Positions 306-62,375 of a stretch of 62,375 bases of DNA are shown here, one piece after another. Each line of letters begins with the position of its first letter. Within the stretch, counting starts at the first letter, position 1. Position numbers and translations under genes: made by a program. This DNA comes from Patescibacteria group bacterium (lineage in GTDB: Bacteria; Patescibacteriota; Microgenomatia; UBA12405): NCBI GenBank assembly GCA_018902845.1, contig JAHIPV010000004.1:1-62375 (forward strand). The letters run 5' to 3'. Below the pieces are notes generated by a model. It was not told where the DNA came from. It worked only from the letters and a program-made list of their open reading frames with translations, and ran no database searches.

Positions 306-373
306 TTTTTTGAAAATCAAAATTTTAAATTTCGTGTTTGTCTTGAATTTTGATATTTGAATTTAAATATTGT

Positions 374-45694: not shown

Positions 45695-45900
45695 CCCACT
45701 TCTTCTCTTTCTCTTTCTTCTCAACAATCTCACTGGCACCCTTACTGTCGGCAACTCTCCCGTCTTAAAGTACGCCGTTTCAAACGCTTTTACTGCCGCA
45801 GGTGGCGGTGTCCGCCCGTGATAATGTTGCTCTAAAAAATTACCATCCTTTATTTCTACTATTGTTCTCGCCATGTCCTCATAATATCACACTTACAAAA

Positions 45901-47337: not shown

Positions 47338-47340
47338 TTT

Positions 47341-47637
47341 CTAAATTCTCTTTTGTGGGAGCATTACTGAACGAGCTTGTTGTCCCGTATTATCCATTGT
47401 TCCTCTAGACATAACCGCCTTACCACCAGAAGCATCAACTAGTTTTCGTTTTTTGCTAACATGTTCTAAACCACGATTGCTCGCTCCATTTCGTCGACTA
47501 TTATCATAAAAAAACACTTTTCCGTTACTTCCCCCACAATCTCTAGGCAACCAAATCCCGAGCTTTGCACTTCTAAACGTCAATTCCGTCATTTCCTCCA
47601 AAGAAAGCGCTTTTTCTGTGTATTCCATCATAAGCAA
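47341..47637 (-). CDS. hypothetical protein
   Basis: 98-aa ORF with no overlap with neighbours. No motif recognised. Confidence 0.4.
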   Translation of the reverse strand: MLMMEYTEKALSLEEMTELTFRSAKLGIWLPRDCGGSNGKVFFYDNSRRNGASNRGLEHVSKKRKLVDASGGKAVMSRGTMDNTGQQARSVMLPQKRI

Positions 47638-47684
47638 ATTATACTACTTATTCCCCAATAATCAATACTATAAGACAATTATTC

Positions 47685-48044
47685 TTATTCTTTGACTATG
47701 TGTCTTGTCATCACCATGAATGTATCCGTAACCCTCACCATCCCTCTTGGTACTGACTCCGCGCCCCAGTCTATAGGCTCTCCAACTTGAGCCAAAGTCC
47801 CCATCGGATCTTTTGATTCAATATCCAGATGAACCCTTGGTGGTCTTCCATCTGGCCACAATTGAACTTCAAACTCAACCTCATCACCAATCTCAAAAAA
47901 TATTCGCCGATGATCTTCGACCGGTCTTGCCTCTCCTCTAATACCCAAATCTCTCATTGCTACTACAATTGCACCATATTCTTCTTCACTAACTACATTT
48001 ATTCCAACATGAGTTACTCTAATTCCTTGTTTTGTTTCTGTCAT
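47685..48044 (-). CDS. small VOC/glyoxalase-like protein (tentative)
   Basis: 119 aa. THVGINV...FEVQLW pattern is weakly reminiscent of the VOC fold. Confidence 0.4.
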   Translation of the reverse strand: MTETKQGIRVTHVGINVVSEEEYGAIVVAMRDLGIRGEARPVEDHRRIFFEIGDEVEFEVQLWPDGRPPRVHLDIESKDPMGTLAQVGEPIDWGAESVPRGMVRVTDTFMVMTRHIVKE

Positions 48045-48140
48045 TTTTTTTTATTAATTTTTAACTTTTCGCGATTATAGGACTTTCGATTTATACTGTC
48101 AAAGTTGACGAACACTTCCGACAGTGATAGACTTTATCCC

Positions 48141-49019
48141 ATGAACCAAATTTATAAGACCTTGTCCGGTTTTGGTCTTACCAAAAACGAAATCAAAGTT
48201 TACCTTCAAACCTTAAAAGAAAACCAGCTTTCCCCGTACAAAATTTCAAAACTGACCAAAATCCCCCGCACTACTGTTTATGACATTCTCATGAATCTTT
48301 CTTTCAAGGGTTTAATAAAACTAAAACAAAGCGATGGTTTTACAAAGCAACAAACAACTATTACTGCAAAAAACCCATCGGTTTTAAGGGATATTCTTTG
48401 GAAAAAAAGAAAAAAAATATCAAACCTGGAACTTGATATTGTTGATATTCTTCCTCAGTTAAAAGGGGATTTTCACAAAGATGAATCCAATGCAGATTTT
48501 AAGTTTTATTCCGGCATAAAAGGTGCAAAAAAAGTTTATCTCGGAGAATTAGATCAAGATATCAACACGCCCATTCTTGCCTTTGAAAACCTTATGCCAA
48601 TGGACATCTTTGGTCGTTATCAAATGAATAAAGATGTTTCCAAAGGAACCAAACAATCACAAAAAAATATAAAAGAAATAATTACTCTAAACGACTGGGC
48701 CATGCATGTCATCTCTTATCAATTCGGCCGTGATCCAAATTATATAAAAACACGCCAAATCAGAACGATCGACAACCCTATTTTTTCTATCAATCAAAGA
48801 ATTGCCATCCAAGACAATAGAATCAGAATCACCACTGCCAAAGACAGTGAAACTTGGGGTTTAATCATCAAAAGTCCCTCTCTTGCCAAAACTTTAGCCT
48901 CAATATTTCACATACTTTGGTCTCAAGCCGTCCCACTCACAAAAAACATCATCGATTCTTGGGGTCCCAATCAATTTTTACTCGCCGAAATTTCCAAAAA
49001 ATCAACCAAATCAAAATAA
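48141..49019 (+). CDS. TrmB-family transcriptional regulator
   Basis: Start moved to ATG 48141. FGLTKNEIKVYLQTL...SPYKISKLTKIPRTTVYDILMNL wHTH. Confidence 0.7.
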   Translation: MNQIYKTLSGFGLTKNEIKVYLQTLKENQLSPYKISKLTKIPRTTVYDILMNLSFKGLIKLKQSDGFTKQQTTITAKNPSVLRDILWKKRKKISNLELDIVDILPQLKGDFHKDESNADFKFYSGIKGAKKVYLGELDQDINTPILAFENLMPMDIFGRYQMNKDVSKGTKQSQKNIKEIITLNDWAMHVISYQFGRDPNYIKTRQIRTIDNPIFSINQRIAIQDNRIRITTAKDSETWGLIIKSPSLAKTLASIFHILWSQAVPLTKNIIDSWGPNQFLLAEISKKSTKSK

Positions 49020-49030
49020 AAACACTCAAA

Positions 49031-49324
49031 TTATTCCATTAATCTATTATATATATACTTCAAGGTCTTTCTTCTTTTACCCAAAACCCATACCAATACA
49101 GCTTCTATCCCTATCATTGGCCATTCCGCCCATTTTCCGTAACTCAAATGAATCAAACCCAGTAAATTGTTCGAAGCTTTTATCCACGTCTCGTGCCACA
49201 GCTCGGTCAGCCAAATTTTCGCTCCAAAAACCTGTAGCAGGTCTCTGGTCAAATGAAAACTCAGTAACAATATTACAAAACTAAAAAATACTATTTTTTT
49301 CTTCACCCTTTTCATCAATTCCAC
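49031..49324 (-). CDS. small membrane protein, hypothetical
   Basis: 97-aa ORF with hydrophobic helices. Confidence 0.4.
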   Translation of the reverse strand: MELMKRVKKKIVFFSFVILLLSFHLTRDLLQVFGAKIWLTELWHETWIKASNNLLGLIHLSYGKWAEWPMIGIEAVLVWVLGKRRKTLKYIYNRLME

Positions 49325-49592
49325 ATTTTAGATAATATCAGATTTTTTGCTTAAATAAACCACCTATTTTTCAATCTCGCTTCCTTCGTTTCTACTGCCC
49401 CATCAAACCCTCCTCTTCTCCTTTTCTATACCCCCAAAATCATTTCCACTACCCCAAGATAAGTTGCACATGACAAGCCTGCCAACCCCATCACCACCAT
49501 TTCAGTCCAGTGTCTTACAATTAATTTCTTCATACTTATTTTTACCCGAATAAAAACCGAAAGTCAATATACCAAATTAGCTTTAAGTTTAC

Positions 49593-50321
49593 TTAATCCA
49601 CCAACAGCCACATCATCCCAATCCCAACTAAAAATATCACAAAAGATAAAATTGATTTCTTTAAACTTTTCTCTTTTCTAATTTCGGGCAAAAGATCGCT
49701 AGCCCCTATATACAAAAAACCGCCAGCCGCCAAAGGTAGCAAAAATTTTTCCATCGCTACTCCCGATTCACTTATAAAATATCCCAGCAAAGCCCCAAAA
49801 ACAGCCGCCAGTCCGCTCAAAAAATTCATTAACAATGCTTGCCTTTTTTTAAATCCGGCATGAACCAAAACACCAAAGTCTCCAATTTCTTGTGGTATTT
49901 CATGAACCAATATAGCCAGACTGGTTGACATCCCCAAGGGGATACTATTAACAAAAGCCCCTGCAATTACCAATCCGTCAACAAAATTATGTATTGCATC
50001 TCCAAAAAGATTCATATAGCCAAAACTATGTATTTCGCATTCACTTTCATGGCAATGTCGCCAGCCCAAAACCTTTTCAAGTACAAAAAACAGCAAAAAA
50101 GACAGTAGGGTAGTGTTAAGTACCATCTTTGTTTCCAGTTCTTCCATTGCCTCTGGCAATAAATGCAAAAATACTCCACCCATTAATGTTCCGGCTGACA
50201 AAGATACCAAAAACACCAGCACATTTTTTAAGGTTTTTTTACTCAAAATTATTCCTACCAACCCTATCAAGGAAACAAGACTTATCAACAAAGTCGCGCC
50301 AACAATCCACATTAATCTCAT
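49593..50321 (-). CDS. ZIP-family (ZupT-like) metal transporter
   Basis: HNFVDG and HEIPQEIGDF motifs. Start moved to MRLMWIV (ATG 50321). Confidence 0.8.
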   Translation of the reverse strand: MRLMWIVGATLLISLVSLIGLVGIILSKKTLKNVLVFLVSLSAGTLMGGVFLHLLPEAMEELETKMVLNTTLLSFLLFFVLEKVLGWRHCHESECEIHSFGYMNLFGDAIHNFVDGLVIAGAFVNSIPLGMSTSLAILVHEIPQEIGDFGVLVHAGFKKRQALLMNFLSGLAAVFGALLGYFISESGVAMEKFLLPLAAGGFLYIGASDLLPEIRKEKSLKKSILSFVIFLVGIGMMWLLVD

Positions 50322-50346
50322 ACATAATTCTACCAGTCCTCCAACC

Positions 50347-50967
50347 CTAAACCTCAATTATCTGAATCGAATCATTATTAACCCAAACGTATTGTTGATC
50401 TGTTAACGGAGTTATTTTTACTCCTTCGGTATACATCGCCTCAAATCTTTTTAAGTATTCATTACGAAAGGCATCACTTCCCCAGTGGGGTAATATAGAC
50501 AAATCTATTATTTTCAGTCCAGTCGATTTTAAACCAGGTGCCTTTGACCGATCGTCGATAGTTGAAACTAAATCAATTCTAGTTCCAACAATCATTGATC
50601 CAGCGCTTGAACCAATATAAATCATTCCACTTTCAATTCTATTTTTAATAATTTCCCCGCAACCAGTTTTAATCACTTGGTCCAGTAAATAAAATTCATT
50701 TCCGCCACAAAAATAGACTATTTGTTTGTCTTCTAATTTATTTTCAATTTCCTCCCTAGTCATTCCATTAATTGAAAATTCATCAACACTAAAACCAACG
50801 TCAATTAATTTGCCCTTTTCAGCTCTAACCCACCAATGGTCTTCATCCTCTACTTCGGCAGCAGTATTAATAAAAGCCAAGTTAAATTCTTTTGGTGTTT
50901 TTGGCAACTTTTTAACGATATCATCTATCACACAATCACCGCTCGAAGTCAAAAATAGTTGTTTCAT
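50347..50967 (-). CDS. peptidase S51 (dipeptidase E-like)
   Basis: FCGGNEFYLL and GSSAGSMI (nucleophile Ser) motifs. Confidence 0.7.
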   Translation of the reverse strand: MKQLFLTSSGDCVIDDIVKKLPKTPKEFNLAFINTAAEVEDEDHWWVRAEKGKLIDVGFSVDEFSINGMTREEIENKLEDKQIVYFCGGNEFYLLDQVIKTGCGEIIKNRIESGMIYIGSSAGSMIVGTRIDLVSTIDDRSKAPGLKSTGLKIIDLSILPHWGSDAFRNEYLKRFEAMYTEGVKITPLTDQQYVWVNNDSIQIIEV

Positions 50968-51099
50968 AGGCTATTTTATCAACACCAATTAAAAAATACC
51001 CAAATATATACCATCACACCCGGCCATGTTTAAATCGCCAGGCAATTTATTACCCGGCAGAGAGTATACCTAAAAATCTATATCCATCTTCTTAACTTT

Positions 51100-51603
51100 T
51101 CAGACTTTGGCAAAAAGTATCATATAATGATGCCCGTATTTTTTCTCACACTTTGGGCAATATGCATAATGGATATAGTACTCATCATTTTTGGCAACCT
51201 TTTTCCCTGTTTTTTGTAAATACACATTCATGTCTTTTACAAATTTGGGGATTGCGTTATATGGGCCTTCGTATACCTTGGCAATAAAGGTACCGGAAAT
51301 TTTAACATTATTTGCTCCCGCAACATTTCCGGTTACAGAAATATAAATATTTGATTTGAATGCGCTTGGATCCTGGAATAAAACCAAAACCTCATCTTTT
51401 TTTGCATCTATCTTACTTGCACCTGTTGCCAGTTCCATCATTTTAGTTATCTTTTTTCCAATCATCGGTGGAAAGGGAATATGAAAAAGTGTAGGAATAG
51501 TCTCCTTGACAAATTGTTTGTTGTTCCAATCGAATGTTTTTTCGTCCCATTTTTTCGGATTAAATTCAGGACAACACTCATTCTTTGTAGTTTTTTTATT
51601 CAT
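51100..51603 (-). CDS. conserved hypothetical protein
   Basis: 167-aa ORF with a Cys pair CPKCEKKYG at the C-terminus. Family not recognised. Confidence 0.45.
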   Translation of the reverse strand: MNKKTTKNECCPEFNPKKWDEKTFDWNNKQFVKETIPTLFHIPFPPMIGKKITKMMELATGASKIDAKKDEVLVLFQDPSAFKSNIYISVTGNVAGANNVKISGTFIAKVYEGPYNAIPKFVKDMNVYLQKTGKKVAKNDEYYIHYAYCPKCEKKYGHHYMILFAKV

Positions 51604-51757
51604 AATTTATAGATTAATTATAAACCCCGCTCGCTTTTGCACCAAATCCATTCAATTCTGCTTCACCAACCCGCCCTGTCCCAAGTATCCCTGCAAGATA
51701 TTCCACTCCCGCAACAAGAGTTTAATATTACAGTGACTTTTTGCTAAACTTTGAAAG

Positions 51758-52402
51758 ATGAAAAAGCCAATTGCGGTACTTTTTGACATGGATGGATTGA
51801 TGGTTGACAGTGAATTGACCAGAGCAGAATCATTTAAGAACGTAATACGAAATCATGGTGTTGTGGTCAAAGAAAAAATACCTCACGTTATTGGAGTAAG
51901 AGTCTTGGACAATTGGGTCATTATGAAAGATAAATATGGTTTAAAAGAAGATCCAGCAAAATTAATGGAAGAAGGGGAAGAAGAATACACTAAGCTAATC
52001 GAGAAAAAAATGCCGATTACCATGCCAGGGCTATTTCAATTAATTGATTATATTAAAAAAGTAAACATCAAAAGAGCGGTAGTTTCATCAGCTGGAATAA
52101 GGCATATTAAGATAAAATTAGAAAAATTAAAATTAACTGATTTTTTTGAAACAATGGTTTCCGGAGATATGCTTACCAAGGGAAAGCCTGATCCAGAAGG
52201 ATATTTGTTAGCAGCAAAAAAACTTGGAGTAGATGCAACAGATTGTCTAGTTCTCGAGGATGCTCCTTCTGGTGTTCAAGCTGCCAAAGCGGCCGGAATG
52301 TTATGTGTTGCGATTCCGAGTACTTATACTAAAAACGGTGATTTTTCTCAGGCGGATTTGATATTAAAAGATCTTAGAGAAGTAATTGCAATATTGAAAT
52401 AA
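51758..52402 (+). CDS. HAD-family hydrolase (beta-phosphoglucomutase-like)
   Basis: LFDMDGLMVDSE, SSAG, KGKPDPEGY, and EDAPSGVQAAKAAGM. Confidence 0.85.
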   Translation: MKKPIAVLFDMDGLMVDSELTRAESFKNVIRNHGVVVKEKIPHVIGVRVLDNWVIMKDKYGLKEDPAKLMEEGEEEYTKLIEKKMPITMPGLFQLIDYIKKVNIKRAVVSSAGIRHIKIKLEKLKLTDFFETMVSGDMLTKGKPDPEGYLLAAKKLGVDATDCLVLEDAPSGVQAAKAAGMLCVAIPSTYTKNGDFSQADLILKDLREVIAILK

Positions 52403-52468
52403 GCATTACATAACCAAGCAAGATTTCATTTTTTTTTACGACAAATTCTAAAAACAAAAATTAAGTTC

Positions 52469-52497
52469 TTGACATCTGTATGACATTGTATTACCAT
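52469..52497 (+). promoter_or_regulatory. candidate promoter/operator of the brnT-remnant/brnA pair
   Basis: TTGACA (52469-52474), 17 nt, then TACCAT. The region contains the direct repeat TGACATCTGTA/TGACATTGTA. Confidence 0.35.
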
Positions 52498-52502
52498 ATA
52501 TT

Positions 52503-52603
52503 ATGGAGTTGAAAGAGCTGGTTTGGGACGATTTTAATATTATATTGTTACTGCTAGAGACTCTAGTAGTAAAGAAAGGAAATTAATAAATGACCAAAAA
52601 TAA
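52503..52603 (+). pseudogene. brnT: decayed brnT (internal deletion plus frameshift)
   Basis: The ATG frame gives MELKELVWDDFN (compare EFQWDKGN of intact BrnT). A second frame gives IVTARDSSSKERKL (compare RVISARDLNKRR) and ends 14 nt inside brnA, mimicking the intact pair's overlap. Confidence 0.45.
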
Positions 52604-52880
52604 AACAAAAACCATTCCAAATTTCAAAAATCGACAGCAAGAAGCCAAGTTTTGGGACACCCACGATTTTACTGATTTTTTGGATCAAACAAAAAAAGTA
52701 AATTTAAAAGTCAATTTAAAAGCACCGAAAGATGGTGTTTTAACTATTAGACTTCAACCCCAACTAAAAAAACACATGAGTCAACTAGCTACAGAAATGG
52801 GTACCCAAACTTCCACCTTAGCCCGTATGTGGCTTATTGAAAAACTAAAGACATTAACTCCTCCGTATCAGTCAACATAA
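52590..52880 (+). CDS. brnA: BrnA-family antitoxin
   Basis: IPNFKNRQQEAKFWDTHDFTDF... parallels 18818..19087. C-terminal RHH-like STLARMWLIEKL. Confidence 0.7.
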   Translation: MTKNKTKTIPNFKNRQQEAKFWDTHDFTDFLDQTKKVNLKVNLKAPKDGVLTIRLQPQLKKHMSQLATEMGTQTSTLARMWLIEKLKTLTPPYQST

Positions 52881-53047
52881 TTATTTTATCCGAATTCATC
52901 GCTCTGTCCCACCTAGCGGACTTTGTCCGCGCACCGCCGACATAGCCTTTGGCGACGCACGGCCGGAGCCAAGCTTTAGCGAGGCCAAGGCGGTGTTTTT
53001 TGATTGATGTTCGAACATTTTTTGACGAAAACCCCCAATAAGGAAGC

Positions 53048-53195
53048 CAGCCCTGCCGTCGCTCGGAAACCTCGCCACCCCGCAAAAAAGTTTTCTTCAC
53101 AATTTTTGATTTGCGCGCGCCGATTTTTTTCTTCTAAAAGGAAAAGAAAACTTTTGTGCGGGGTTCTGCTCTTAACGAGCAGGACGGCGGGGCTG
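53048..53195. other. 148-nt imperfect long hairpin (left flank of the R-M/RT cassette)
   Basis: CAGCCCTGCCGTCGCTCG (53048-53065) pairs with CGAGCAGGACGGCGGGGCTG (53176-53195). ACCCCGCAAAAAAGTTTTC (53077-53095) pairs with GAAAACTTTTGTGCGGGGT (53146-53164). 50-nt apical loop. Confidence 0.65.
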
Positions 53196-53215
53196 TCCAC
53201 AATTTGATTTCGCTC

Positions 53216-53258
53216 GGGCGTGGCGGAATTCCCCCCAAACCCCCCTTCCGCCACGCCC
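53216..53258. other. perfect 13-bp stem hairpin with C-rich loop
   Basis: GGGCGTGGCGGAA (53216-53228) and TTCCGCCACGCCC (53246-53258). Loop TTCCCCCCAAACCCCCC. Confidence 0.75.
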
Positions 53259-53329
53259 TCGCGGGGACGATTCTTTTTTTCGGCGGAATTTGAGGCTGTG
53301 CCAATTTCATTGGCGCGCCACCTTTTGTC

Positions 53330-54067
53330 TTATTTTATCAGATTCCAATTATCAAGGAAATAGTCCATTTCGTGATCCATATTTCCGAGATATACCTTAT
53401 CATTTCTAAACTTTATATTCACACGATAGCGTTTTCCGTGTCCGACTTCCAAAATTGCTTTTTCGTGTACTTTCTTTTCAACTTCGTGAAATGGCAAAAT
53501 CAAAAAATTACTTTTCTTTTCGCCGTGCAAAACAAAAATATAATAAATATTGCCGTTGCTGTGGCGTTCAAATGATACTTTACGAATATCAAAAACATAA
53601 GTGTCAAAACTATTAAGATTTGAAGTTTTGACCTGAATACCAAACAATTGATTATCTTTGACCGCCACAATGTCCATTCCAACATCTACGCTCATTATGC
53701 TGGCATTGAAACCACGAAAAAGCAATTCGCTACATACCAAATGCTCGCCACCTTTTCCAGTAAATCCTCCAGCGATAACAATTTTTTCTTCCTCCTCTTT
53801 TTCCGCTTCAATAATCTTTGGCGTTTCTTTGATTTCTTTTTTGTTTGGATTGAGCGCAAAAGTTCCGGGCGCGGTTTTGATAAAATCCGAGCCTTCAACT
53901 TTGTTTTTAATATCTACCGTGATTTGTGCGTTCATTGACGCTTCCGGCGTCGCGCCCTCTGTTTCCAAGATGCCAGATTCCAAAGCCAGCCGAGTGATTT
54001 CGGTATAGTGCAAAGGCGTTTTTGCCTTTTTTAATATCTCAATCGCAGATTGCTTGAATGTATTCAT
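53330..54067 (-). CDS. HARE-HTH/Mrr_N-like winged-helix + PD-(D/E)xK nuclease-fold protein
   Basis: N-terminus SAIEILKKAKTPLHYTEITRLALESG...APGTFALN. C-terminus GGEHLVCSELLFRG...VDVGMDIVAV...GIQVKTS (E...D...QxK pattern). 5 nt downstream of the RT gene. Confidence 0.6.
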   Translation of the reverse strand: MNTFKQSAIEILKKAKTPLHYTEITRLALESGILETEGATPEASMNAQITVDIKNKVEGSDFIKTAPGTFALNPNKKEIKETPKIIEAEKEEEEKIVIAGGFTGKGGEHLVCSELLFRGFNASIMSVDVGMDIVAVKDNQLFGIQVKTSNLNSFDTYVFDIRKVSFERHSNGNIYYIFVLHGEKKSNFLILPFHEVEKKVHEKAILEVGHGKRYRVNIKFRNDKVYLGNMDHEMDYFLDNWNLIK

Positions 54068-54072
54068 AAATT

Positions 54073-55575
54073 TTAGCTTTCATAACTAAACACTTGTATT
54101 TCCCTTCTCTCAATTTTAGGCTTAATTTTATCTATAACTGCCCGATTAACAAAAACGCCGTTGCTCAATATATCTTTTACTGTTTTTTCGCTTATCCAGT
54201 CGTTTGTAAATATCTTTTGTTTGTAATCTCCATAAGCATATTTGCAAAGAGTCTCGTCAAAATCTAATTTTAATTTCAATCCAAGCGCGATTCTTTGGAT
54301 CCATATTTCCAACAAACCAGCATTCGAAAGTGTCCCTATTTTTTCTTGGACTCTTACTAATAAATCAAGTTGTGATTGCTTTGACAATTTTGGAATATAG
54401 TCAGACATCAAACCAGCAATGAAAGGAAAACAATTCGGGTTATTGTAACCTATATCAATCAGAATTCCAGTTATTGTTTTTTCTTGGTATTTATAATGTT
54501 CTGATTTAACCACATCTATAATTTTTGATAATCTATTTTTTAGAATTCCTGAGTTAGGAAATTTTTTACCGATTTGTTGAATTATCAATAATTGTCGCAG
54601 CAACTCAGTTTTTGATAGTTTTTTAGGAACCAATCCATACTTTAACGAATCAACTTTATCGTCTTTTATTGAGCCACCAATAATATCTTGATTGAAGCAG
54701 GTTTTGTTTGTATTTAAACGAAAACCTAAATCAAGTAACACCTCGCTAAGACTTTTTAGAATAATATCTCCATCGCTAATGTCGTTAACAAAAATTCGAT
54801 AATCGTCTCGGTATCTTAATATAAAGTATTTTTTACTTTCAATAATTTTATTCAATTTTTTCGATAATTCACAATCCGCATATCCTAGAACAATTTCCGC
54901 AATAAAATCCATTAAACTACTTCCTTCTGGTATACCGTTGGTTTGACCATTATTCATTGCCTGAAGATGACAATCAATCTTATTGCCAAACAACTCATTA
55001 TAACCCCTCTTTTCCTTTCCAATTTTTTTTGTATGTATAGCCCATGGCAAAGAGTGGGTATAAATTGATCCATAGCAACTACTGATATCTGTGTGATATA
55101 TAAACTTATAATCTAGTGCCAACGAAATTGATTTTTTTTCTACATTATTTACCCATTGAGTAATCTGCGCCGCTTTTTGCTTTCTCTTTCCCGACGGTAT
55201 TACAGGCATACTTTCACATCTAATATTTTTAGATTTTTGAAATTCCTTAAAACAATTTTGTAAAAACTTCCAGTTATCTTTTTCAGTTATAATGTTGACC
55301 AGCGAAACATACAACAACGGATTTATAATTTGATACTTTCTCCATGCATATTTACCATCCTTATTGCCGTATAAAATGTGATTTATCGTTTCTTTTTCTT
55401 TTGCTTTATTTAAGTCTGATAAATCTAGTACTTTTTTCTTAAATGCCTTATCGGTAGCAGATAAAACATTTTTAAAAACAAAATAATCGGGTAACTCAAT
55501 ATTTGAAAAAACCTCTTGTGTTAAAAAGAATTTTTTGGCATCTGTGTGATTTAGATTAAGAATATTTTTTGCCAT
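54073..55575 (-). CDS. reverse transcriptase (UG/Abi-like: N-terminal RT domain + about 170-aa helical C-terminal domain)
   Basis: Motif A YHTDISSCYGSI (D163 = 55087-55089), motif B NGIPEGSSLMDFIAEIVL, motif C ILRYRDDYRIF (YRDD = 54802-54813), motif E-like LGFRLNTNKT. Confidence 0.8.
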   Translation of the reverse strand: MAKNILNLNHTDAKKFFLTQEVFSNIELPDYFVFKNVLSATDKAFKKKVLDLSDLNKAKEKETINHILYGNKDGKYAWRKYQIINPLLYVSLVNIITEKDNWKFLQNCFKEFQKSKNIRCESMPVIPSGKRKQKAAQITQWVNNVEKKSISLALDYKFIYHTDISSCYGSIYTHSLPWAIHTKKIGKEKRGYNELFGNKIDCHLQAMNNGQTNGIPEGSSLMDFIAEIVLGYADCELSKKLNKIIESKKYFILRYRDDYRIFVNDISDGDIILKSLSEVLLDLGFRLNTNKTCFNQDIIGGSIKDDKVDSLKYGLVPKKLSKTELLRQLLIIQQIGKKFPNSGILKNRLSKIIDVVKSEHYKYQEKTITGILIDIGYNNPNCFPFIAGLMSDYIPKLSKQSQLDLLVRVQEKIGTLSNAGLLEIWIQRIALGLKLKLDFDETLCKYAYGDYKQKIFTNDWISEKTVKDILSNGVFVNRAVIDKIKPKIERREIQVFSYES

Positions 55576-55577
55576 AT

Positions 55578-56753
55578 TTACAATTCACCGTTAAAAGCCC
55601 TTGCCAAAACAGAAGGCATTAAGGCGGTTGTTATCAAAAATTGTTTTGATCTTTCTTTTTTAATTTCTTCTTTTTTATTTTCAATTAAATTTAAATGATC
55701 AATAACTTTTTGTTGCTCAGCAATTGAATCTGGGAAAGAAAATACTAATTTCTTTATTTTGTCTTGATTAAGAATGGGCAATGTAGTTGCGGGGCATAAA
55801 CCTCTTATTGTTGAATAGTTTGCCTTGAACCAGTAATAAGCAAATTCTGGTAATATATTTTCTTTAAATCTAATTCCTGTAATTTGTTGATTTGAAGTCG
55901 CCTCGTTTTTCAAAATCCCTACTTTTCCAAGAGTTGCGCCTATTCCGATAAATAAAACGGTCCCGGCTTTATAAATTTTTACCTTTCCATCATCAATCGC
56001 GAGTTTAGAAATTTTGCGATATGAATTTTCGAGATACATCTGCCCCTTAAAATCAGAAGGGGTGAACCAATTTAGCTCTTCTTTGAAATATTTTTGTTCG
56101 CCTGATGGTGGGGTTGTTCCTGTCTTAATCTCATCAATCAGATCACCTATTTTTTCTTTTTTCCAACCCGTATCGCTAAAAATTTTACTTAAGGCAGATG
56201 GCACAATAGCATTAACCGCTTTTTCAATATAATTTTCTGCATTGATAATTGATTTAGTGCGTTCCTCAATCTCCTTAATCTTTTTTACAATCCGCTTTTG
56301 TTCAAGAAGTGTTGGAAGCAAAATTTCTTTGTTTAAGAATAGTTCTTCTTGCAAATATCTTCTGTTTGTTGCACCTTGACTGGAAGCAATACAAAATTCT
56401 AAGAATTTAGCAGAGTGAGAAAAGTAAAAGAAAAAATCGGGACTAATTTTTGTTAGATCCAATTCGTAAGCCCAAAAATTACCCGTAATAATTCCACCGT
56501 CAGCTTCTTCGGGGATTATGCCGAAAGCACCGTTCCTAGCGTCGATTTTTGATAGCAATAACCAACCTGCTATAACAGTAAATTGATTTTTTGTTCCTAT
56601 TCTCGATCCAACAACTTCATCTCTCACGCAAATGCCTTTATTGTGCATTTTTATAGTAATGCGCTTGTATGTTTTTTTGTCATCAAGAACAATTGTCTCT
56701 TTTTTTCTGAGAAGAAAATCACTAATTTTATATTGCTTCCAATCGCTTTTCAT
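55578..56753 (-). CDS. hsdS: type I restriction-modification specificity subunit
   Basis: 391 aa with two TRD halves separated and ended by conserved helical spacers (LPTLLEQKRIVKKIKEIE, IAEQQKVIDHLNLIE). 2 nt after hsdM. Confidence 0.85.
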   Translation of the reverse strand: MKSDWKQYKISDFLLRKKETIVLDDKKTYKRITIKMHNKGICVRDEVVGSRIGTKNQFTVIAGWLLLSKIDARNGAFGIIPEEADGGIITGNFWAYELDLTKISPDFFFYFSHSAKFLEFCIASSQGATNRRYLQEELFLNKEILLPTLLEQKRIVKKIKEIEERTKSIINAENYIEKAVNAIVPSALSKIFSDTGWKKEKIGDLIDEIKTGTTPPSGEQKYFKEELNWFTPSDFKGQMYLENSYRKISKLAIDDGKVKIYKAGTVLFIGIGATLGKVGILKNEATSNQQITGIRFKENILPEFAYYWFKANYSTIRGLCPATTLPILNQDKIKKLVFSFPDSIAEQQKVIDHLNLIENKKEEIKKERSKQFLITTALMPSVLARAFNGEL

Positions 56754-56755
56754 AG

Positions 56756-58189
56756 CTATTTAATTAAATCCTTTATCTCCGAAAGTAACGATATTATTGT
56801 TTTTTCTGACTCTTCAATTTTAGCAATTAATTCCTCTGGTGGAAGATGCTCAAACTCCGCTTTTTTGTTCGGATTTTTTACATCAAGATTGTAGTTACTT
56901 TTGATAATTTCCTCTACCGGCACAATCCACGATTGTTCGGTTAATTCTTTCTTTTCCCATAATTTTTTGGCTTCTTCAAAATATACGCTCTTGATTGGCT
57001 TTGATTTTGAAAAGTTTTTTAAACCTTCTGGCAACGGCATTTCATAGTAAAAAATTTCTTTTGTTGGTCCTGTTTTTTCAAAAAATAAAATATTTGTCGG
57101 AATGTTCGTATAAGGTGCGAAAGAACCGTTCGGCAAACGGACGATGTGGTGCAAATTAAATTGCTGAAGCAATTCCTTTTTTGTATTTACATAACTTTGA
57201 TCATCAGTTTTGAATAACACGCCTTCGGGGAAGATAATCGCGCACTTTCCGCCGTCTTTAAGTGAGCGCAAACAATGTTGCAAAAATAAAATCTCGGTTT
57301 GAGCAGAAGGATAAGGAAAATTTGACTCAATACCTCGCACAGTTCCGGAAAATGGCGGATTTGTGAGAATGATGTCATATTTTTCGGTGAGGTTGAAAAG
57401 ATTGATTGAAAGCGTGTTCATTTTACGGATATTTGGTGTAGCGATTCCGTTAAGCATCATATTCATCGTTCCCAAAATAAACGGCAATGATTTTAATTCT
57501 TTTCCATAAAAAGATTCTTTTTGCAAAAATTCTTTATCTTTGGTATTTTTTTCTTGCGGACGCATAAAATGATACGCCTCAGTCAAGAAGCCGGACGGCC
57601 CATTGCAAGGGTCATAAATAGTTTGTCCGATTTTTGGAGATATCATTTCCGTCATAAAACGAGCAATAACGCGCGGAGTGTGAAATTCAGCAAGTGGTTT
57701 AATATCTGACGATTTCATGCGAGCAAAAAGACCTTCGTAAATACTGGAAACTGCGAAAGAATCTTCATCGCCAAAAAAGTCCACACTAGCCAACACATCC
57801 ACAACTTCACGGAGTAAATAGCCGTCTTCCATTCTGTTTTGAGTATTGTTGAAAATTTCTGAAATAATTTCTTTTGTGCGATTGCCGGAAAGAGTGCGAA
57901 AATATGGAAAAAGTTTTATTTGCACAAATTCTAAAAGATCTGGTCCTGTAATATAAGAATCCTTGCCAGTCCACACACTCCAGCGATATTCATTATCAAT
58001 ATTACGGTTGTAGGTTTTGCCTTCAAATGTCGCCTTGGCTTCATATTCGTTTTCTATTTCTTCATATACTTTCAAAAACAAAAGCCACGAAAACTGCTCA
58101 ACATACTGCAAAGCGCCCGTTGTTCCGGGGTCTTGGCGCATTTTATTGCATGCGCTCCATAATTTATTTGAAATTGAATCGTTTGCCAT
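56756..58189 (-). CDS. hsdM: type I restriction-modification DNA methyltransferase subunit (N6-adenine)
   Basis: HsdM_N-type N-terminus (LWSACNKMR), motif I DPCNGPSGFL, and catalytic TNPPFSG. Confidence 0.9.
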   Translation of the reverse strand: MANDSISNKLWSACNKMRQDPGTTGALQYVEQFSWLLFLKVYEEIENEYEAKATFEGKTYNRNIDNEYRWSVWTGKDSYITGPDLLEFVQIKLFPYFRTLSGNRTKEIISEIFNNTQNRMEDGYLLREVVDVLASVDFFGDEDSFAVSSIYEGLFARMKSSDIKPLAEFHTPRVIARFMTEMISPKIGQTIYDPCNGPSGFLTEAYHFMRPQEKNTKDKEFLQKESFYGKELKSLPFILGTMNMMLNGIATPNIRKMNTLSINLFNLTEKYDIILTNPPFSGTVRGIESNFPYPSAQTEILFLQHCLRSLKDGGKCAIIFPEGVLFKTDDQSYVNTKKELLQQFNLHHIVRLPNGSFAPYTNIPTNILFFEKTGPTKEIFYYEMPLPEGLKNFSKSKPIKSVYFEEAKKLWEKKELTEQSWIVPVEEIIKSNYNLDVKNPNKKAEFEHLPPEELIAKIEESEKTIISLLSEIKDLIK

Positions 58190-58202
58190 AGTTTATTTTT
58201 CG

Positions 58203-60695
58203 TTAATTTGCATAAATTTTTTCCTGCAAGCGATCAACATTTTGCCGAAGTGCTTGCGGATTGCCGAAGGCTTTTTGCGAATACATAAAGCCGGGCATTG
58301 GATATACATCAAAAACATTGGCTTTTGTAATTTCCGTTACTCCGTTTTCCTGATATTTCAAAAGCAATCCGCTGACAATTTTTTGCTGTTCCTTATTAAG
58401 ACTTTTCAAAAATTCTTGTTCACGATTTAAGACGGCATCAGTTCTTTCTTTTCGTGAGTGCAGATTTTCGCCAAATCCAAGATTCGCCAAAAGATCGTAT
58501 TCATCGGCTTCGGTATTATTGGTGATTTTGGCAAGCATACGGATATGGATACCTTGATTTTCCAATTCAGTAATAAGCTCGTCTCTGGATTCTTGCTTGA
58601 TCCATTGCGTTTTCAATTCATCAGTATTTTTAACAACTTTTCCAATTTCCTCCTTGGAATAAGCAACATATTCTTTAAGCGTTAGCCTTTTGCCTAAAAT
58701 ATCAACTTCAAACATCATTTCATCCTCAATAAAAACAGTAAGACCATGAACTTTTATCGGCGGAACAGGTTTTTTCTGGGCAACTAGCTCAATTTGAATT
58801 TGCTCCTTGTCGCTTATTTGCGTTTCAATGGTAATTTCTCTGTGCTTGAAGCCGTTTGCCGCCACATAGAGTTTTATTTTCCCTTCCGGAATATTGGAAA
58901 AGCTAAATTCACCGCTTGCGTTTGTTCTTGTTTGCGTTTGCTCATTTGGCGATAATTGAATTGTCATCAAGGCATTTTCAACAGGTGCGAGCGAATCTTC
59001 TTCAACAACAATTCCATTAAGAAAATTGATTTTTGGCGTGTCTGGTTTGATTTCGGGCTTGCCCTCAATCCATTCGTCAATCAATCTTGTGGCATTAGTA
59101 TAATCAATTACCCGATACCAAAATTTGCCTTTTTCTTTTGAAATACGACTACCTCGCCCCATAATCTGTTTGAAAACTATTGGCGAGCGTATCGGCTTCA
59201 TAAAAACAATATTTTGAACTGTGGGCGCGTCAAAACCAGTGGAAAGTAAATCAACAGTAGTGGCAACAACTGGAACATTTTGCGCTTGATCTTGAAAAGT
59301 TTTTAGAAGCGCCAATGAGTCAGTTTCTTCTGAGACAATCCGGATTGCATAATTTGGAAAGCCAAGGTAAGCAAAATGATTTTGTAAATGTTTTGCGACT
59401 TCGCCGGCATGCTCCATGGTTACGCAAAAAACAATTGTTTTTTGCATTTCGCCATAAGTTTTAATGAGTCCGGCAAGATGTTCGCACATTTTCTCGGTTC
59501 TATCTGGCAAAATGATACCTTTTTCAAACTGTTCCATTTTGTAAAAATCATTCGGTTCAGCTTCGTCCGGTATTTCGACTCTCGCTCCTTTTTTAACGGC
59601 ATCTTCAATATTTACTCCATCTTTATCAATATTGAGTTTTACTTTGTGAAGCAAAAAGTTAGCAAGAAACCCATCGTCAATTCCTTGTGCCATGCTGTAA
59701 TCGTAAACGGCCTGATTTTCCTTCTTTGGATCACCGAAATATTTGTAGGTGTTTATATTTTCATCTTGTTTCGGCGTTGCGGTCATTCCAAGCTGAATTG
59801 CTGTTGAAAAATGCTTTAGGATTTCGTTCCAAGTACTAAATCCGCTTCTGTGACACTCATCAATCACAATTAAATCAAAAAAATCTTTGGGATACTGCTC
59901 AAAAATTCTTTTTCCGTCTTTTTCGCTCCACATTGCCTGATAAATACTAAAATAAATGTCGCGAGCCGTTGGAGCTTGCCCCTCTTCAATATATCCACGC
60001 GCATTTCCAAATGGTTCAAAAGTATTAAAGGCCTGATCTCGTAAAACATTTCTATCTGCAAGGAATAAAACACGGCGGATTTTCTTTGCCTGTTTTAATT
60101 TCCAAGCGATTTGAAAAGCTATGTTTGTTTTGCCCGTGCCTGTAGCTAGGTTTAATAAAATCCGCTTTTGACCTTTGGAAATTGCTTCAATTGCACGACG
60201 AATAGCGACTTGCTGATAATAGCGAGGGTTGGTATTGAAAGTTTGTTTATTATAAGCGGTAGCGAGTGGCAAAACTTCTGTTTCGGATAATTCTTTCGCT
60301 TTCAAATATCTTCGATAAAGTTCATCTTGCGTTGGAAAAGTTTCAATTGTTTTTTGTGTGTTGTTTGTAAAATCAAATTCTTCAATTTCGTGTCCATTGG
60401 TAGAATACGCAAAAAGTATATCTAGCCGTTCGGCGTATTCTTTGACTTGTTGCATACCGGAAACGGCGGGCTTTCCTTCTTCCTTTGCTTCAACGACTGC
60501 AAGAGGTAGAGCTTCATTGAAATATAAAATGTAATCGGCTTTTTTTGGTTCTTTTCGTTTTGATTCATCGCCAACGAGAAAAATCTTTCCGTCAGTAAAA
60601 TAATATTCACGAGTAATAAAATCTTCAGTCCAGCCGGACTGTTTTATTTTTGGATCAATTATTTTTGCTCTTGTGTCTGCTTCGTTATATGCCAT
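58203..60695 (-). CDS. hsdR: type I restriction enzyme R subunit (EcoEI-like C-terminus) with an inserted carboxypeptidase-regulatory-like beta-sandwich
   Basis: N-terminal NEADTRAKIIDPKI nuclease region, helicase motifs LATGTGKT / VIDECHR / MTATP / QIMGRGSR. Insert NALMTIQL...TNASGEFSFSNIPEGKIKLYVAANGF (about 58815-59020). Confidence 0.9.
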   Translation of the reverse strand: MAYNEADTRAKIIDPKIKQSGWTEDFITREYYFTDGKIFLVGDESKRKEPKKADYILYFNEALPLAVVEAKEEGKPAVSGMQQVKEYAERLDILFAYSTNGHEIEEFDFTNNTQKTIETFPTQDELYRRYLKAKELSETEVLPLATAYNKQTFNTNPRYYQQVAIRRAIEAISKGQKRILLNLATGTGKTNIAFQIAWKLKQAKKIRRVLFLADRNVLRDQAFNTFEPFGNARGYIEEGQAPTARDIYFSIYQAMWSEKDGKRIFEQYPKDFFDLIVIDECHRSGFSTWNEILKHFSTAIQLGMTATPKQDENINTYKYFGDPKKENQAVYDYSMAQGIDDGFLANFLLHKVKLNIDKDGVNIEDAVKKGARVEIPDEAEPNDFYKMEQFEKGIILPDRTEKMCEHLAGLIKTYGEMQKTIVFCVTMEHAGEVAKHLQNHFAYLGFPNYAIRIVSEETDSLALLKTFQDQAQNVPVVATTVDLLSTGFDAPTVQNIVFMKPIRSPIVFKQIMGRGSRISKEKGKFWYRVIDYTNATRLIDEWIEGKPEIKPDTPKINFLNGIVVEEDSLAPVENALMTIQLSPNEQTQTRTNASGEFSFSNIPEGKIKLYVAANGFKHREITIETQISDKEQIQIELVAQKKPVPPIKVHGLTVFIEDEMMFEVDILGKRLTLKEYVAYSKEEIGKVVKNTDELKTQWIKQESRDELITELENQGIHIRMLAKITNNTEADEYDLLANLGFGENLHSRKERTDAVLNREQEFLKSLNKEQQKIVSGLLLKYQENGVTEITKANVFDVYPMPGFMYSQKAFGNPQALRQNVDRLQEKIYAN

Positions 60696-60699
60696 ATTT

Positions 60700-60900
60700 T
60701 TATTTAAACAATTCTGCCGTCTCCACGCCGAGGGCTTTGGCTAGTTTTTCCAATGTGTCCACCGTAGGATTCGGACTTTCGCCTGTTTCTATCTTAACAA
60801 CGGTATTTAACGCCAAATCAGCGTCTTTTGAGAGGCGATCTTGTGAGATTCCTTTTTTGATTCGCAATTTGCGGATATTTTCGCTAACTGTATTTGCCAT
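60700..60900 (-). CDS. XRE-family helix-turn-helix regulator (controller-protein-like position)
   Basis: 66 aa with IRKLRIKKGISQDRLSKDADLALNTVVKIE (HTH_3). Stop lies 4 nt before the hsdR start. Confidence 0.8.
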   Translation of the reverse strand: MANTVSENIRKLRIKKGISQDRLSKDADLALNTVVKIETGESPNPTVDTLEKLAKALGVETAELFK

Positions 60901-60922
60901 ATTGGTTTGACTTTGATAAACT

Positions 60923-60952
60923 ATTATAATACACTACTTATATTGAGTGTAT
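60923..60952 (-). promoter_or_regulatory. candidate -10 box plus 7-bp-arm palindromic operator upstream of the XRE gene
   Basis: Minus-strand TATAAT (60923-60928). ATACACT (60929-60935) - 10 nt - AGTGTAT (60946-60952). Confidence 0.4.
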
Positions 60953-61134
60953 ATCAACTTGCTTAATACAATGGTATCAAAAATATTAAAATTTGGCAAA
61001 CAAAAAGGGAGTTCATTCGACACAACGCGCGCACGGGTGGGTGGGGCAAGCGTTATTCCTCTTTTATCTTCTCTTTTGTTTTCTGTCCCGCCGTCCGTCC
61101 GCCGAAAAGTTTTGGGGGCGAAGCCAAAGCAGGC

Positions 61135-61175
61135 GGGCAAAAAGGAAGGGGGTTGGGGGGAAGGAATTTTTGCCC
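61135..61175. other. 9-bp stem hairpin with G-rich loop (mirror of 53216..53258)
   Basis: GGGCAAAAA (61135-61143) and TTTTTGCCC (61167-61175). Loop GGAAGGGGGTTGGGGGGAAGGAA. Confidence 0.7.
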
Positions 61176-61194
61176 TTTTGCGATTCAGAATAGA

Positions 61195-61349
61195 GCGTTT
61201 CCGCTTTTCTCTGATTAAGAGAAAACCAAAACAGAAAATTTTTCATCTCCTATTAAAAGAAAAAAATGGGGTGCAGAAAAAAATAAAAAATGTAATGAAA
61301 AAATTTCTGTTTTGGTTTGCCGTAGAGGAGCGGAGGCAAGCGGAAACGC
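61195..61349. other. 155-nt imperfect long hairpin (right flank of the R-M/RT cassette)
   Basis: GCGTTTCCGCTT (61195-61206) pairs with AAGCGGAAACGC (61338-61349). AAACCAAAACAGAAAATTTTTCAT (61223-61246) pairs with ATGAAAAAATTTCTGTTTTGGTTT (61295-61318) at 23/24 positions. 48-nt A-rich apical loop. Confidence 0.7.
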
Positions 61350-61684
61350 ACATCATTATTCTGGATTCTGTTCAAAAAAAGTTAGAATTTCAACCAAAAG
61401 GTACCGCCATGAAAAAATCAGAGTATGACCTCTGGTTTTTTCATTTATGATGATATTAGTTGTGATGGAAGAAGGTGGGAATATGGTATGATGCAAATAT
61501 ATGACAAATGGAGAAGTTACAATGAACGAACTCATGGATTTTTTGGTGGAAAATGTGGCTACCAACAGAGATGCATCAGATGGAACATCGGATATTGGAT
61601 ACCATTTCTACATTTAATGGCGTAGAATTATAATTTTATTCACAGACCACCTCACGTATATTTTCTTACCCTGACGATACCGCA

Positions 61685-61722
61685 GACCCCCGGCGGAGCC
61701 TGGCCTGGCTCCGCCGGGGGTC
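61685..61722. terminator. perfect 16-bp GC-rich stem-loop in the GC-rich terminal segment
   Basis: GACCCCCGGCGGAGCC / GGCTCCGCCGGGGGTC with a 6-nt loop. No clear U-tract. Two further GC hairpins at about 61779-61808 and 61836-61872, downstream of the minus-strand ORF. Confidence 0.35.
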
Positions 61723-61906
61723 TTCTCGAGAAGATCCCTCACTTTGTTCGGGATGGGAAAAGAAATAAAATGCGAACGCCCCCGGTGTACTCGGTACACA
61801 CGGGGGCGTAAGGTTAGGGGGAAGGAACTTGGTGTGGCAGGTACTGCGGGTTTGGACCGCAGACCTGCCACGAGATGAGGTAGTTTGCCCCTGACGCGCC
61901 AGCGGG

Positions 61907-62375
61907 TTAGAACCGCTGGGTGCCGAATCCGATGAGGGTGTAACCCCCCATCGGGATATCGTTCCCGGCCGGGTGCTTGCGCACCGCAGCCAACACGTCG
62001 CTCGCCTGCACCACGGCACCGTTGGCCGTGCAGCGGCCGATGCCGTCCTGCGTGGCCCCGCGGAGCTCCACGACCTGGTACACACCATCGATCCCCGAGG
62101 GGATGGTGGTGTGCACGAGGGTGCCGGTGTTGATCACCGACCCCTCGTTCCAGGCGTCGGCGCACATCACGGCGCCGTTGAGGACGCCTCCGTCCATGAC
62201 GACGGTGGCCACGGGTGCGGGCGGGGTGCGGGTGCTCCACCAGGCGGTCAGACCGCCGATGGCGCCGGCGCACACCAGGCCCAGGAGGGCCAGGAGCAGG
62301 GCGAGGGCGATCAGGCCGGCGCAGCCCATCCAGCGCCGGTTGTTGCGGGGGGGCGGGGGGGGCTGGTCCACGACG
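61907..62375 (-). CDS. partial membrane-anchored hypothetical protein from a high-GC source (5' end may run off the window)
   Basis: Frame with the sensible composition: TM helix GCAGLIALALLLALLGLVCAG, then a Gly/Val/Thr-rich domain. The competing overlapping frames are Arg-rich high-GC artefacts. Confidence 0.45.
   Translation of the reverse strand, partial: VVDQPPPPPRNNRRWMGCAGLIALALLLALLGLVCAGAIGGLTAWWSTRTPPAPVATVVMDGGVLNGAVMCADAWNEGSVINTGTLVHTTIPSGIDGVYQVVELRGATQDGIGRCTANGAVVQASDVLAAVRKHPAGNDIPMGGYTLIGFGTQRF

Follow-up and report, generated by a model that had tools for sequence, protein, structure and literature searches.

Genomic islands that are moved into tRNA genes by a large serine recombinase (LSR) and that carry defence cargo are already known in kind, for example SCC/Ccr and the Prochlorococcus tycheposons. 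In these islands the LSR lies at one end, beside its target, a short common core serves for conservative insertion that leaves the tRNA intact, the cargo is variable and often defensive, and filled and empty sites coexist in one population. Bacteria of the candidate phyla radiation (CPR, Patescibacteria) are largely without CRISPR and are thought to depend on restriction-modification (R-M), and little is known of the transfer of R-M systems from one of these small genomes to another. One patescibacterium has been reported to carry a complete type I R-M system on a genomic island (PMC12455944); in a term search of that paper, recombinase, integrase, tRNA and inverted repeat were not mentioned. 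Here, we analyzed a contig of 62,375 nt from a Patescibacteria group bacterium (JAHIPV010000004.1; the whole stretch is referred to as the window), in which a type I R-M operon is bracketed by two structured, GC-rich blocks in mirrored arrangement. The two blocks are probably diverged inverted copies of a non-coding arm that belongs to a family of small integrative Patescibacteria islands. The bracket is the cargo bay of an LSR island inserted into tRNA-Ser and not the mobile unit itself, and the likenesses to known LSR islands named above recur here.

Two inverted copies of a structured arm

Each of the two blocks contains a long and a small hairpin. On the right, the small hairpin (61135-61175) has the arms GGGCAAAAA and TTTTTGCCC around a G-rich loop of 23 nt, and the long hairpin (61195-61349) has inner arms of 24 nt (61223-61246 and 61295-61318) with a complementarity of 96% and a spacing of 48 nt. 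On the left, the inner arms of the long hairpin (53048-53195) are located at 53077-53097 and 53144-53164 with a complementarity of 95%, and the small hairpin (53216-53258) has a stem of 13 bp and the loop TTCCCCCCAAACCCCCC. All four hairpins lie where the initial annotation had placed them, including the right inner stem and its 48-nt loop. The folding of each block was compared with dinucleotide shuffles on both strands and resulted in z-scores of -5.6 and -4.2 for the right block and -6.2 and -4.8 for the left block, a range (-4.2 to -6.2) that bears out the structure proposed for both.

In local alignment, the left block scored 55 against the reverse complement of the right block, which was reached by 0 of 300 shuffles (20.6 ± 2.2) and is far above shuffled sequence, whereas the direct orientation scored 20, with 118 of 300 shuffles as high (19.2 ± 2.3). 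With nhmmer, 52985-53255 aligned to 61411-61097 on the opposite strand (E 1.9e-14 and 4.5e-18), and no further copies of the block besides the two were found within the 62-kb window. Judged by these comparisons, the mirror arrangement that had been noticed earlier is homology, in the inverted orientation only and beyond shared composition. The homologous register is inverted and ∼300 nt long. Short direct matches that had also been listed (53050-53094 against 61086-61113, and AAAAG-rich strings) were at chance level and lay outside this register. Pairwise alignment of the blocks showed stems altered on both sides (CCCCGC/GCGGGG versus CAAAAC/GTTTTG) and a small-hairpin loop, CCCCCCAA(A)CCCCC, that was kept between left and right. 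A dispersed repeat inside this genome was ruled out, as there was no third copy in the window; the family is spread across genomes instead. The features of the two arms and of the right flank are listed below, with related loci given by L numbers.

52988 to 52993, + strand: attL crossover core AGGCGG, the last bases common to the window and the empty site
52988 to 53047, + strand: outer (distal) part of the left arm, GGCGGTGTTTTTTGA..GTTCGAAC..AAAACCCCCAATAAGGAAG, att-like and resembling a tRNA 3' end and T-loop
53048 to 53195, + strand: long palindrome L, of Y shape (outer stem; long inner hairpin, its loop AT-rich; side hairpin at the 3' side)
53216 to 53258, + strand: small palindrome type A, stem of 13 bp, loop TTCCCCCCAAACCCCCC (polypyrimidine mirror repeat); the loop is near-invariant, with at least six stem sequences
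53259 to 53327, + strand: conserved inner end of the left arm, …CGGCGGAATTT, hairpin, GGCGCGCCACC; the cargo begins directly after it
60901 to 61134, - strand: promoter-like region with the palindrome ATACACT-N10-AGTGTAT, then the inner end of the right arm, TTGCCCCACCCACCCGTGCGCGC…CGGCGGACGG; common to L001, L096, L105, L121 and L087
61135 to 61175, - strand: small palindrome type B, loop TTCCTTCCCCCCAACCCCCTTCC on the - strand; a hybrid site in the window
61195 to 61349, - strand: long palindrome R, of Y shape; this variant shares 87-96% identity with its counterparts in L056 and L108
61350 to 61411, - strand: outer segment of the right arm, reading GGCGGTACCTTTTGGTTGAAATTCTAAC… on the - strand and terminating at a flank/arm junction rather than in a recombinase gene
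61412 to 62375, no strand: flank foreign to the island as known elsewhere, ∼230 nt AT-rich and then 67% G+C from ∼61640

The distribution of the arm was investigated with a scan for its loop motif, using one genome per species, which gave at least 119 stretches. Among the matches listed, most were near-verbatim copies of the two small palindromes and most came from Patescibacteria metagenome-assembled genomes (MAGs) of many classes, the arm being present in dozens of CPR MAGs; some of the matches listed were unrelated repeat families. The small palindromes have the near-invariant consensus loop TTCCCCCCAA(A)CCCCC(C)TTCC and occur in two layouts, type A (stem, TTCCCCCCAAACCCCCC, stem) and type B (GGGC..GGGCAAAAA, TTCCTTCCCCCCAACCCCCTTCC, TTTTTGCCC..). 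All arms consist of an outer end, GGCGGTG..GTTCGAAC, that resembles the 3' end of tRNA-Ser, of one or two small palindromes, and of an inner end with the consensus CGGCGG..AATT.., hairpin, GCGCCRCC. The long palindrome is optional: it was found in some arm types only and is absent from short types. An IMG/VR scan gave only one contig with a family member, and carriage by phages was rejected.

The limits of the arms were determined from a multi-locus alignment, in which the left-arm unit extends from 52988 to ∼53327. Conservation across loci begins exactly at 52988, upstream of which the flank differs per locus, and it fades just past the GGCGCGCCACC motif (BLAST limits 53324-53336), beyond which the gene differs in every aligned locus. 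L038 is an exception and leaves the left-arm similarity earlier, near 53300. On the right, similarity extends from 61411 inward across the promoter and a helix-turn-helix (HTH) gene as far as 60692, shortly after the stop codon of this gene.

Inverted arms around cargo were also present elsewhere, most extensively in the 139-kb long-read contig L096 (376 nt, 98% identical), and further in L117 (173 nt, 99%), L128 (133 nt, 99%) and L120 (76 nt, 97%). The expectation that the same ends would surround other cargo in other genomes was borne out by L096, L105, L117 and L128. The arm copies are near-identical within a locus and clearly diverged between loci, which implies ongoing gene conversion or inversion between arms. 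Hybrid small palindromes, with flanks of two variant types, were seen in the window and in L113, L112, L066, L045 and L074, showing that arm variants recombine with each other. No stretches shared by the variants are identical over a greater length than the loops, so that the hybrids are equally well accounted for by homologous recombination. A site-specific exchange limited to the small-palindrome loops was rejected, since breakpoints occur elsewhere too (L006, L004, L038, L112).

A second dispersed repeat, GTCATCCTGAGTRAGYCTTACGACCGAAGGATCT, was observed in the window (257-310, 2395-2465, 28080-28130 and 28212-28245) and in L137 (3779-3841 and 4936-5002). It is an intergenic hairpin, often followed by a T-run, that adjoins tRNA genes, and by appearance it is like a repetitive extragenic palindrome or a terminator.

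The island boundary and its serine recombinase

A metagenome scan with the HAD hydrolase adjoining the island as query returned L137 (Ga0180007_10012415), which is 99.8% identical to window 49307-52993. At the break the window reads …GAGGCCAAGGCGG / TGTTTTTTGATTGATGTTCGAAC; L137 reads …GAGGCCAAGGCGG / AGAGTATAGGATTCGAACC and continues with tRNA-Ser(cga) on the - strand and then tRNA-Arg. L137 is the empty site, and the attL of the island thus lies at 52988-52993 in the left block; in the empty site, the core AGGCGG is the 3' end of tRNA-Ser(cga). The cassette-like polymorphism sought for the locus therefore exists. The initial annotation had predicted an empty site with brnA joined directly to the sequence right of 61.36 kb; instead, the brnA flank leads to tRNA-Ser and tRNA-Arg. 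It follows from L137 that what naturally adjoins the island on the right is tRNA-Ser and not the DNA beyond 61.36 kb.

Between the brnA-like gene and the island lie 107 nt of flank (52881-52987) that are GC-rich and hairpin-rich (GCGGACTTTGTCCGC; CACCGCC…GGCGGTG). This flank is unchanged in the empty site and is hence host DNA from downstream of tRNA-Ser, where it could serve as an attB arm or a terminator. The CopG/BrnA-type antitoxin gene (52590-52880) directly adjoins the insertion site, and a small open reading frame (ORF) upstream may be its toxin partner.

An LSR gene with the Pfam domains Resolvase, Recombinase and Zn_ribbon_recom adjoins the arm in ten loci (L001/L011, L079, L085, L087, L089, L094, L096, L117, L118 and L121). 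Its 3' end abuts the 3' end of tRNA-Ser in L096, L079, L085 and L087 and tRNA-Asn in L118. In each complete case an inverted repeat (113-147 nt, 98-100% identity) encloses the LSR; one of its copies is the 3' end of the gene and the other an inverted upstream copy that abuts the outer end of the arm. This design holds even between LSRs of 44-55% protein identity. The core GGCGG was common to three junction types: LSR end with tRNA (LSR-end / TGGCGG / AGAGG…), LSR-end copy with arm (LSR-end copy / GGCGG / TGTTTTTTGA…) and unrelated flank with arm (flank / GGCGG / TGTTTTTTGA…). The tRNA-Ser genes at the LSR end were intact (ARAGORN), so that the target gene is preserved. The short core identity and the lack of target duplications fit with a serine recombinase. 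In L001/L011, which hold the same island and are identical to the window up to 61175, the LSR lies directly beyond the right arm. In the sibling assemblies, an inverted repeat of the last ∼130 nt of the LSR gene lies upstream of the gene. As regards integrases, the earlier statement that none is present is therefore true of the window only.

These junctions also bear on a transposon origin of the blocks, in which they would be the terminal inverted repeats of a non-autonomous DDE or foldback transposon (a pair of miniature inverted-repeat transposable elements, or a composite), with the 8.3 kb as the unit and a transposase acting in trans. The inverted orientation, the sharp conserved outer ends, the several contexts, the different cargo between the same ends and the lack of a recombinase inside the window's bracket would all agree with such an element. 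It is nevertheless highly improbable, since target-site duplications occurred at no paired junction and no transposase is linked to the family, in contrast to the LSR with its ten loci. Moreover, the outer end of the arm coincides with a tRNA-Ser 3' end, the empty site shows conservative insertion with the shared GGCGG, and the right arm is internal to the island in the sibling assemblies. Of the earlier proposal of an 8.3-kb mobile cassette with structured inverted ends, it stands that the blocks are inverted copies of one structured element and that the left outer end is the island boundary (attL). The 8.3-kb bracket as a mobile unit does not stand, as the right arm is internal in five siblings and the island runs on into the LSR gene.

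Three loci showed deviating junctions. In L034 (60-100 and 3560-3590) and in L067 (- strand), near tRNA-Ser, the LSR segment is deleted and the outermost 8-21 nt of the LSR-flanking inverted repeat are left; the L034 island sits between two convergent tRNA genes. In L062 (5183-5305), tRNA-Ser is followed by 33 nt and then by a left-type long palindrome without the usual outer arm segment, and this junction is either truncated or alternative.

Exact-protein look-ups placed the same operon on 19 contigs. One of them, JAHIMY010000023.1 (L001), equals the window base for base over 44073-61175 and is unrelated past 61175, which is the distal foot of the right small hairpin. Outward of this hairpin, L001 holds the structured unit once more, as a third copy with 79% identity to the left block, and then the LSR gene. 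This type of right flank occurs in four other assemblies, from other sources, and the window's flank in none of them; a look-up of the three right-flank ORFs found no independent assembly with the window's arrangement on record. In the alignment, the type-B palindrome of the window combines flanks of two types. The distal one, GCAAAA, is that of L056 and L108, in which the palindrome is joined to long hairpin R as in the window; the proximal one, GCCTGC, is that of L001 and L096, in which the palindrome is joined to the HTH cassette. Beyond 61175, the right flank of the window arose either by recombination within the palindrome, which is identical over 35-41 nt, or by chimeric assembly.

An assembly artefact, in which the contig jumped between loci via the 35-41-nt type-B palindrome and then into a high-GC organism, so that the bracket exists in no cell, has a substantial, somewhat less than even chance of accounting for the position of the right block. 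The agreement with JAHIMY010000023.1 up to 61175 and its abrupt end, the LSR-type flank in the four other assemblies, the palindrome with flanks of two variant types, the 67% G+C of the last 740 nt and the right-flank ORFs that are not on record would all be expected from it. On the other hand, the right arm is a true family member (87-96% identical to L056 and L108) and hybrid palindromes occur in independent MAGs too. The siblings hold an inverted arm at this position (unit 3 plus the type-B palindrome), so the inverted bracketing of the cargo stands.

At ∼61640, the G+C content of the window leaps from ∼36% to 67%. The stretch 61640-62375 contains several GC-rich hairpins and an ORF on the - strand for a membrane-anchored, actinobacterial-looking protein. 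None of the five sibling assemblies has this stretch, which probably represents foreign DNA or the chimeric end of a contig. In two metagenome contigs, L004 and L006, the cassette of the window recurs (99.7-99.99% identity) in left contexts that differ from that of the window. L004 exits the arm at 7690/7691 (window 53264), 5 nt before the small palindrome, and enters a P-type ATPase gene, and L006 changes to another arm variant inside the long hairpin (4700-4889). These contexts are either rearrangements or chimeras.

Possible palindrome functions and variable cargo

The base pairs of 71 small palindromes, with at least 11 stem sequences, comprised 906 Watson-Crick, 14 G-T and 14 A-C pairs. 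These numbers show that the stems covary and that neither strand is favoured. The Y shape of the long palindrome (outer stem, long inner hairpin, short 3' hairpin) was found in at least five sequence variants, with double-sided changes at 14 of the 21 pairs of the inner stem. Next to an unchanged flank, one loop was seen in either orientation (L019 versus L087).

A second suggestion of the initial annotation was that the blocks are two copies of an RNA element. As a structured non-coding RNA, they could encode an operon regulator or antisense RNA, or the template or partner of the reverse transcriptase (RT), and the inversion would reflect two gene copies. The strong predicted folds (z -4 to -6), the covarying stems, the conserved loop and the RT gene within the cargo speak for it, and C-rich or GGA-rich loops are typical of regulatory RNAs. 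However, Rfam 15 gave 0 matches at gathering score in the whole window, and its only hits, of 19-27 bits to miRNA-precursor and sRNA models, were generic hairpins far below threshold. No conserved promoter was found in the arms, hairpins with a T-run were absent from 52500-53500 (0 versus 1.5 expected), and none of the terminator matches in the right region lay within arm palindromes. The non-canonical pairs are unbiased between G-T and A-C, and both strands fold. The same arms flank cargo that has no RT, and the RT of the window is of the Abi-P2 class (E 9.6e-169); RTs of this class are said to synthesise DNA without an RNA template. The long hairpin is missing from short arm types and the arm is continuous with the att core. 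An RNA gene is thus improbable, and the RNA suggestion found no specific support in families, promoters, terminators or strand bias of the pairs. A partner RNA of the RT, of the retron or DRT type, was rejected on the Abi-P2 class of the RT, the RT-less cargo between the arms and the lack of an Rfam match.

The lack of terminators also bears on a role of the blocks as bidirectional transcription terminators or insulators that would keep read-through out of the toxic R-M cargo and of the genes beside it, with the symmetry as a by-product. Such a role would suit the left block, which lies between convergent genes (the brnA-like gene ends at 52880 on the + strand and the operon at 53330 on the - strand), and the presence of GC-rich hairpins in an AT-rich genome. 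It appears very improbable, because the left block holds 0 hairpins with a T-run versus 1.5 expected, the genes on either side of the right arm diverge in sibling loci, so that a terminator is not needed there, and the near-invariant loop and 340-450 nt of conserved modular sequence exceed what termination needs.

As far as their sequences tell, the hairpins show nothing specific to RNA and are compatible with a DNA-level signal in single-stranded or cruciform form. Our best guess is that the palindromes are a cis signal needed on both strands, e.g., when the excised element is primed, replicated or transferred. As a second choice, they may promote recombination or serve as insulators.

Between the arms lies the cargo, headed by the HTH gene, with the following features.

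53330 to 60695, - strand: variable cargo operon; similarity to loci with other cargo stops at 60692 and ∼53336
58203 to 60695, - strand: HsdR, EcoAI family (E 2e-219)
56756 to 58189, - strand: HsdM, a gene of the cargo operon
55578 to 56753, - strand: HsdS, a gene of the cargo operon
54073 to 55575, - strand: Abi-P2-class reverse transcriptase (PADLOC E 9.6e-169)
53330 to 54067, - strand: HARE-HTH protein with a weak PD-(D/E)XK match, the last gene of the operon
60700 to 60900, - strand: 66-aa HTH gene, controller/C-protein-like (Pfam HTH_3 1.8e-14; PADLOC 'control protein' 1e-10)

The HTH protein of the window is 93-96% identical to those in L096, L087 and L121, which hold different cargo. 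The HTH gene belongs to the constant backbone that heads the cargo operon. A promoter-like match was located at 60953-60926 on the - strand, and the palindrome ATACACT-N10-AGTGTAT may act as an operator. In L096, an HTH protein 94% identical to that of the window precedes a helicase, an N6/N4 methyltransferase and two unknown ORFs; in L105, the HTH gene precedes two Dam-type methyltransferases, an AlwI endonuclease and an AAA_13 ATPase. Among 52 ORFs located behind HTH homologues, 11 were DNA methyltransferases, and nucleases (Tsp45I, AlwI, MTES_1575, GmrSD), AAA_5, AAA_13 and Cap15 proteins were also present, plus non-defence genes such as transporters. The cargo behind the conserved HTH gene often consists of R-M or other defence genes.

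Within the window, the Abi-P2 RT and the HARE-HTH protein are the last two genes of the type I R-M operon and may form a combined defence module with it. No literature on Abi-P2 together with type I restriction was found, and the association of RT and R-M is that of the window alone. In HsdR, a CarboxypepD_reg-like beta-sandwich domain (residues 559-645) is inserted after the helicase and before the C-terminal domain, which is unusual in the EcoAI family.

A model of the island and its comparison with known systems

We propose that the integrated island has the layout flank / arm → cargo ← arm · LSR-end copy · LSR → / tRNA. The excised form would be a circle in which two inverted copies of a unit (LSR 3' end / GGCGG / arm) separate the LSR segment from the cargo segment. 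The LSR would recombine one of these copies (attP) with the end of the tRNA gene (attB) and so give the integrated layout. The layout observed in L096, L087, L079, L085, L117 and L118 is what a two-segment circle with inverted repeats would give. The arms and the HTH/promoter module would serve as constant flanks, so that cargo could be exchanged between elements by recombination. The palindromes, given their conserved loop, covarying stems and lack of strand bias, may act in single-stranded or cruciform DNA. The LSR-less arrangement of the window would have been made by recombination inside the type-B palindrome or by chimeric assembly at that point.

Several observations weigh against this model and against the assignment of the blocks to an island family. 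The circle, the excision and the activity of the LSR are inferred from sequence. Neither the LSR nor a tRNA gene was found within the window, and the attR of its lineage was not captured, as L001 stops 8 nt after the LSR-end repeat. The crossover is bracketed only to an identity of 5-6 nt. The arms reach 60-290 nt inside the core, beyond the needs of a typical LSR attP, and their link to recombination is hypothetical. The breakpoints between variants lie outside the loops too (in the long hairpin in L006, at 53264 in L004 and at 53300 in L038), a spread that may fit homologous or illegitimate recombination as well as a site-specific process. Gene conversion between arms could produce the covariation of the palindromes even if structure is not under selection. 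Many matches of the loop motif came from MAG bins labelled as other phyla, which may be mis-binning, and part of the cargo is unrelated to defence.

An island of this kind would offer a concrete vehicle for defence cargo in CPR bacteria: a tRNA-Ser-targeting LSR island with an HTH/promoter module, an arm-bounded cargo bay, and coordinates for attL and the empty site. The loop motif TTCCCCCCAA(A)CCCCC(C)TTCC is a searchable marker of these islands in MAGs, often at contig breaks, and could help to find defence cargo and to repair assemblies. The LSR and its sites are natural candidates for a CPR genetic tool. Should the palindromes turn out to be signals for replication, transfer or recombination, they would represent a cis element of a new type. 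We consider it unlikely, although conceivable, that the arms are cis signals in single-stranded or extruded DNA, being palindromes that expose a near-invariant mirror-repeat loop (polypyrimidine, or polypurine on the opposite strand) and are present as inverted pairs so that each strand carries one, and that together with the inverted attP duplication they define an undescribed minimal CPR element that is strand-symmetric, 2-micron-like and driven by a serine recombinase. If true, the element could replicate, amplify or enter cells as single strands, and swappable defence cargo could be shuttled between very distant CPR lineages.

Full-text literature searches gave no description of the arrangement of arm, LSR and tRNA-Ser. 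Among described systems, single-stranded hairpin signals (attC, rolling-circle single-strand origins and the T-shaped flip/flop repeats of parvoviruses) are like the arms in that structure is kept and stem sequence is not, in the Y- or T-shaped long palindrome, in the inverted copies at module ends and in a loop that occurs in both orientations. They differ in that no integron integrase, Rep or HUH protein was seen near the arms. The attC sites of integrons are moreover direct and conserve the base of the stem, whereas the arms are inverted and conserve the loop. On direct reading of 53216-53258 and 61135-61175, no GTTRRRY/GTT core was seen at the base of the stem. An integron cassette was rejected, since the sites are inverted, a GTT core is lacking and the linked recombinase is a serine enzyme.

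R-M operons with a C protein share with the island a small HTH gene and a palindromic, operator-like site at the head of the operon, and the cargo of the island is often R-M. Here, in contrast, the HTH gene and promoter are constant backbone and head unrelated cargo too, so that the module looks like a generic switch for cargo expression of the island rather than a part of one R-M system.

The yeast 2-micron plasmid, with inverted repeats of 599 bp that contain the target of its recombinase, resembles the layout we infer here in its two unique segments, in the inverted repeats that hold the recombinase site, and in a recombinase gene that is intact in either orientation. It differs in its tyrosine enzyme (FLP), where the island has a serine enzyme, integrates into tRNA genes and has no known replication origin or partition genes; the circular layout of the island is a prediction from its integrated sequence.

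From the LSR islands in tRNA genes named at the outset, the present island differs in carrying an inverted duplication of the region next to att (300-500 nt, the LSR 3' end among them) and in that cargo and LSR each lie between long, near-identical inverted repeats. It further differs in its conserved palindromes with a near-invariant polypyrimidine loop, in its CPR hosts, and in that no excision factor or replication gene was seen. An LSR-moved island with defence cargo in a tRNA gene is thus familiar; the inverted att-proximal duplication, the structured arms with their near-invariant loop and the constant HTH/promoter module, all in CPR bacteria, are unusual.

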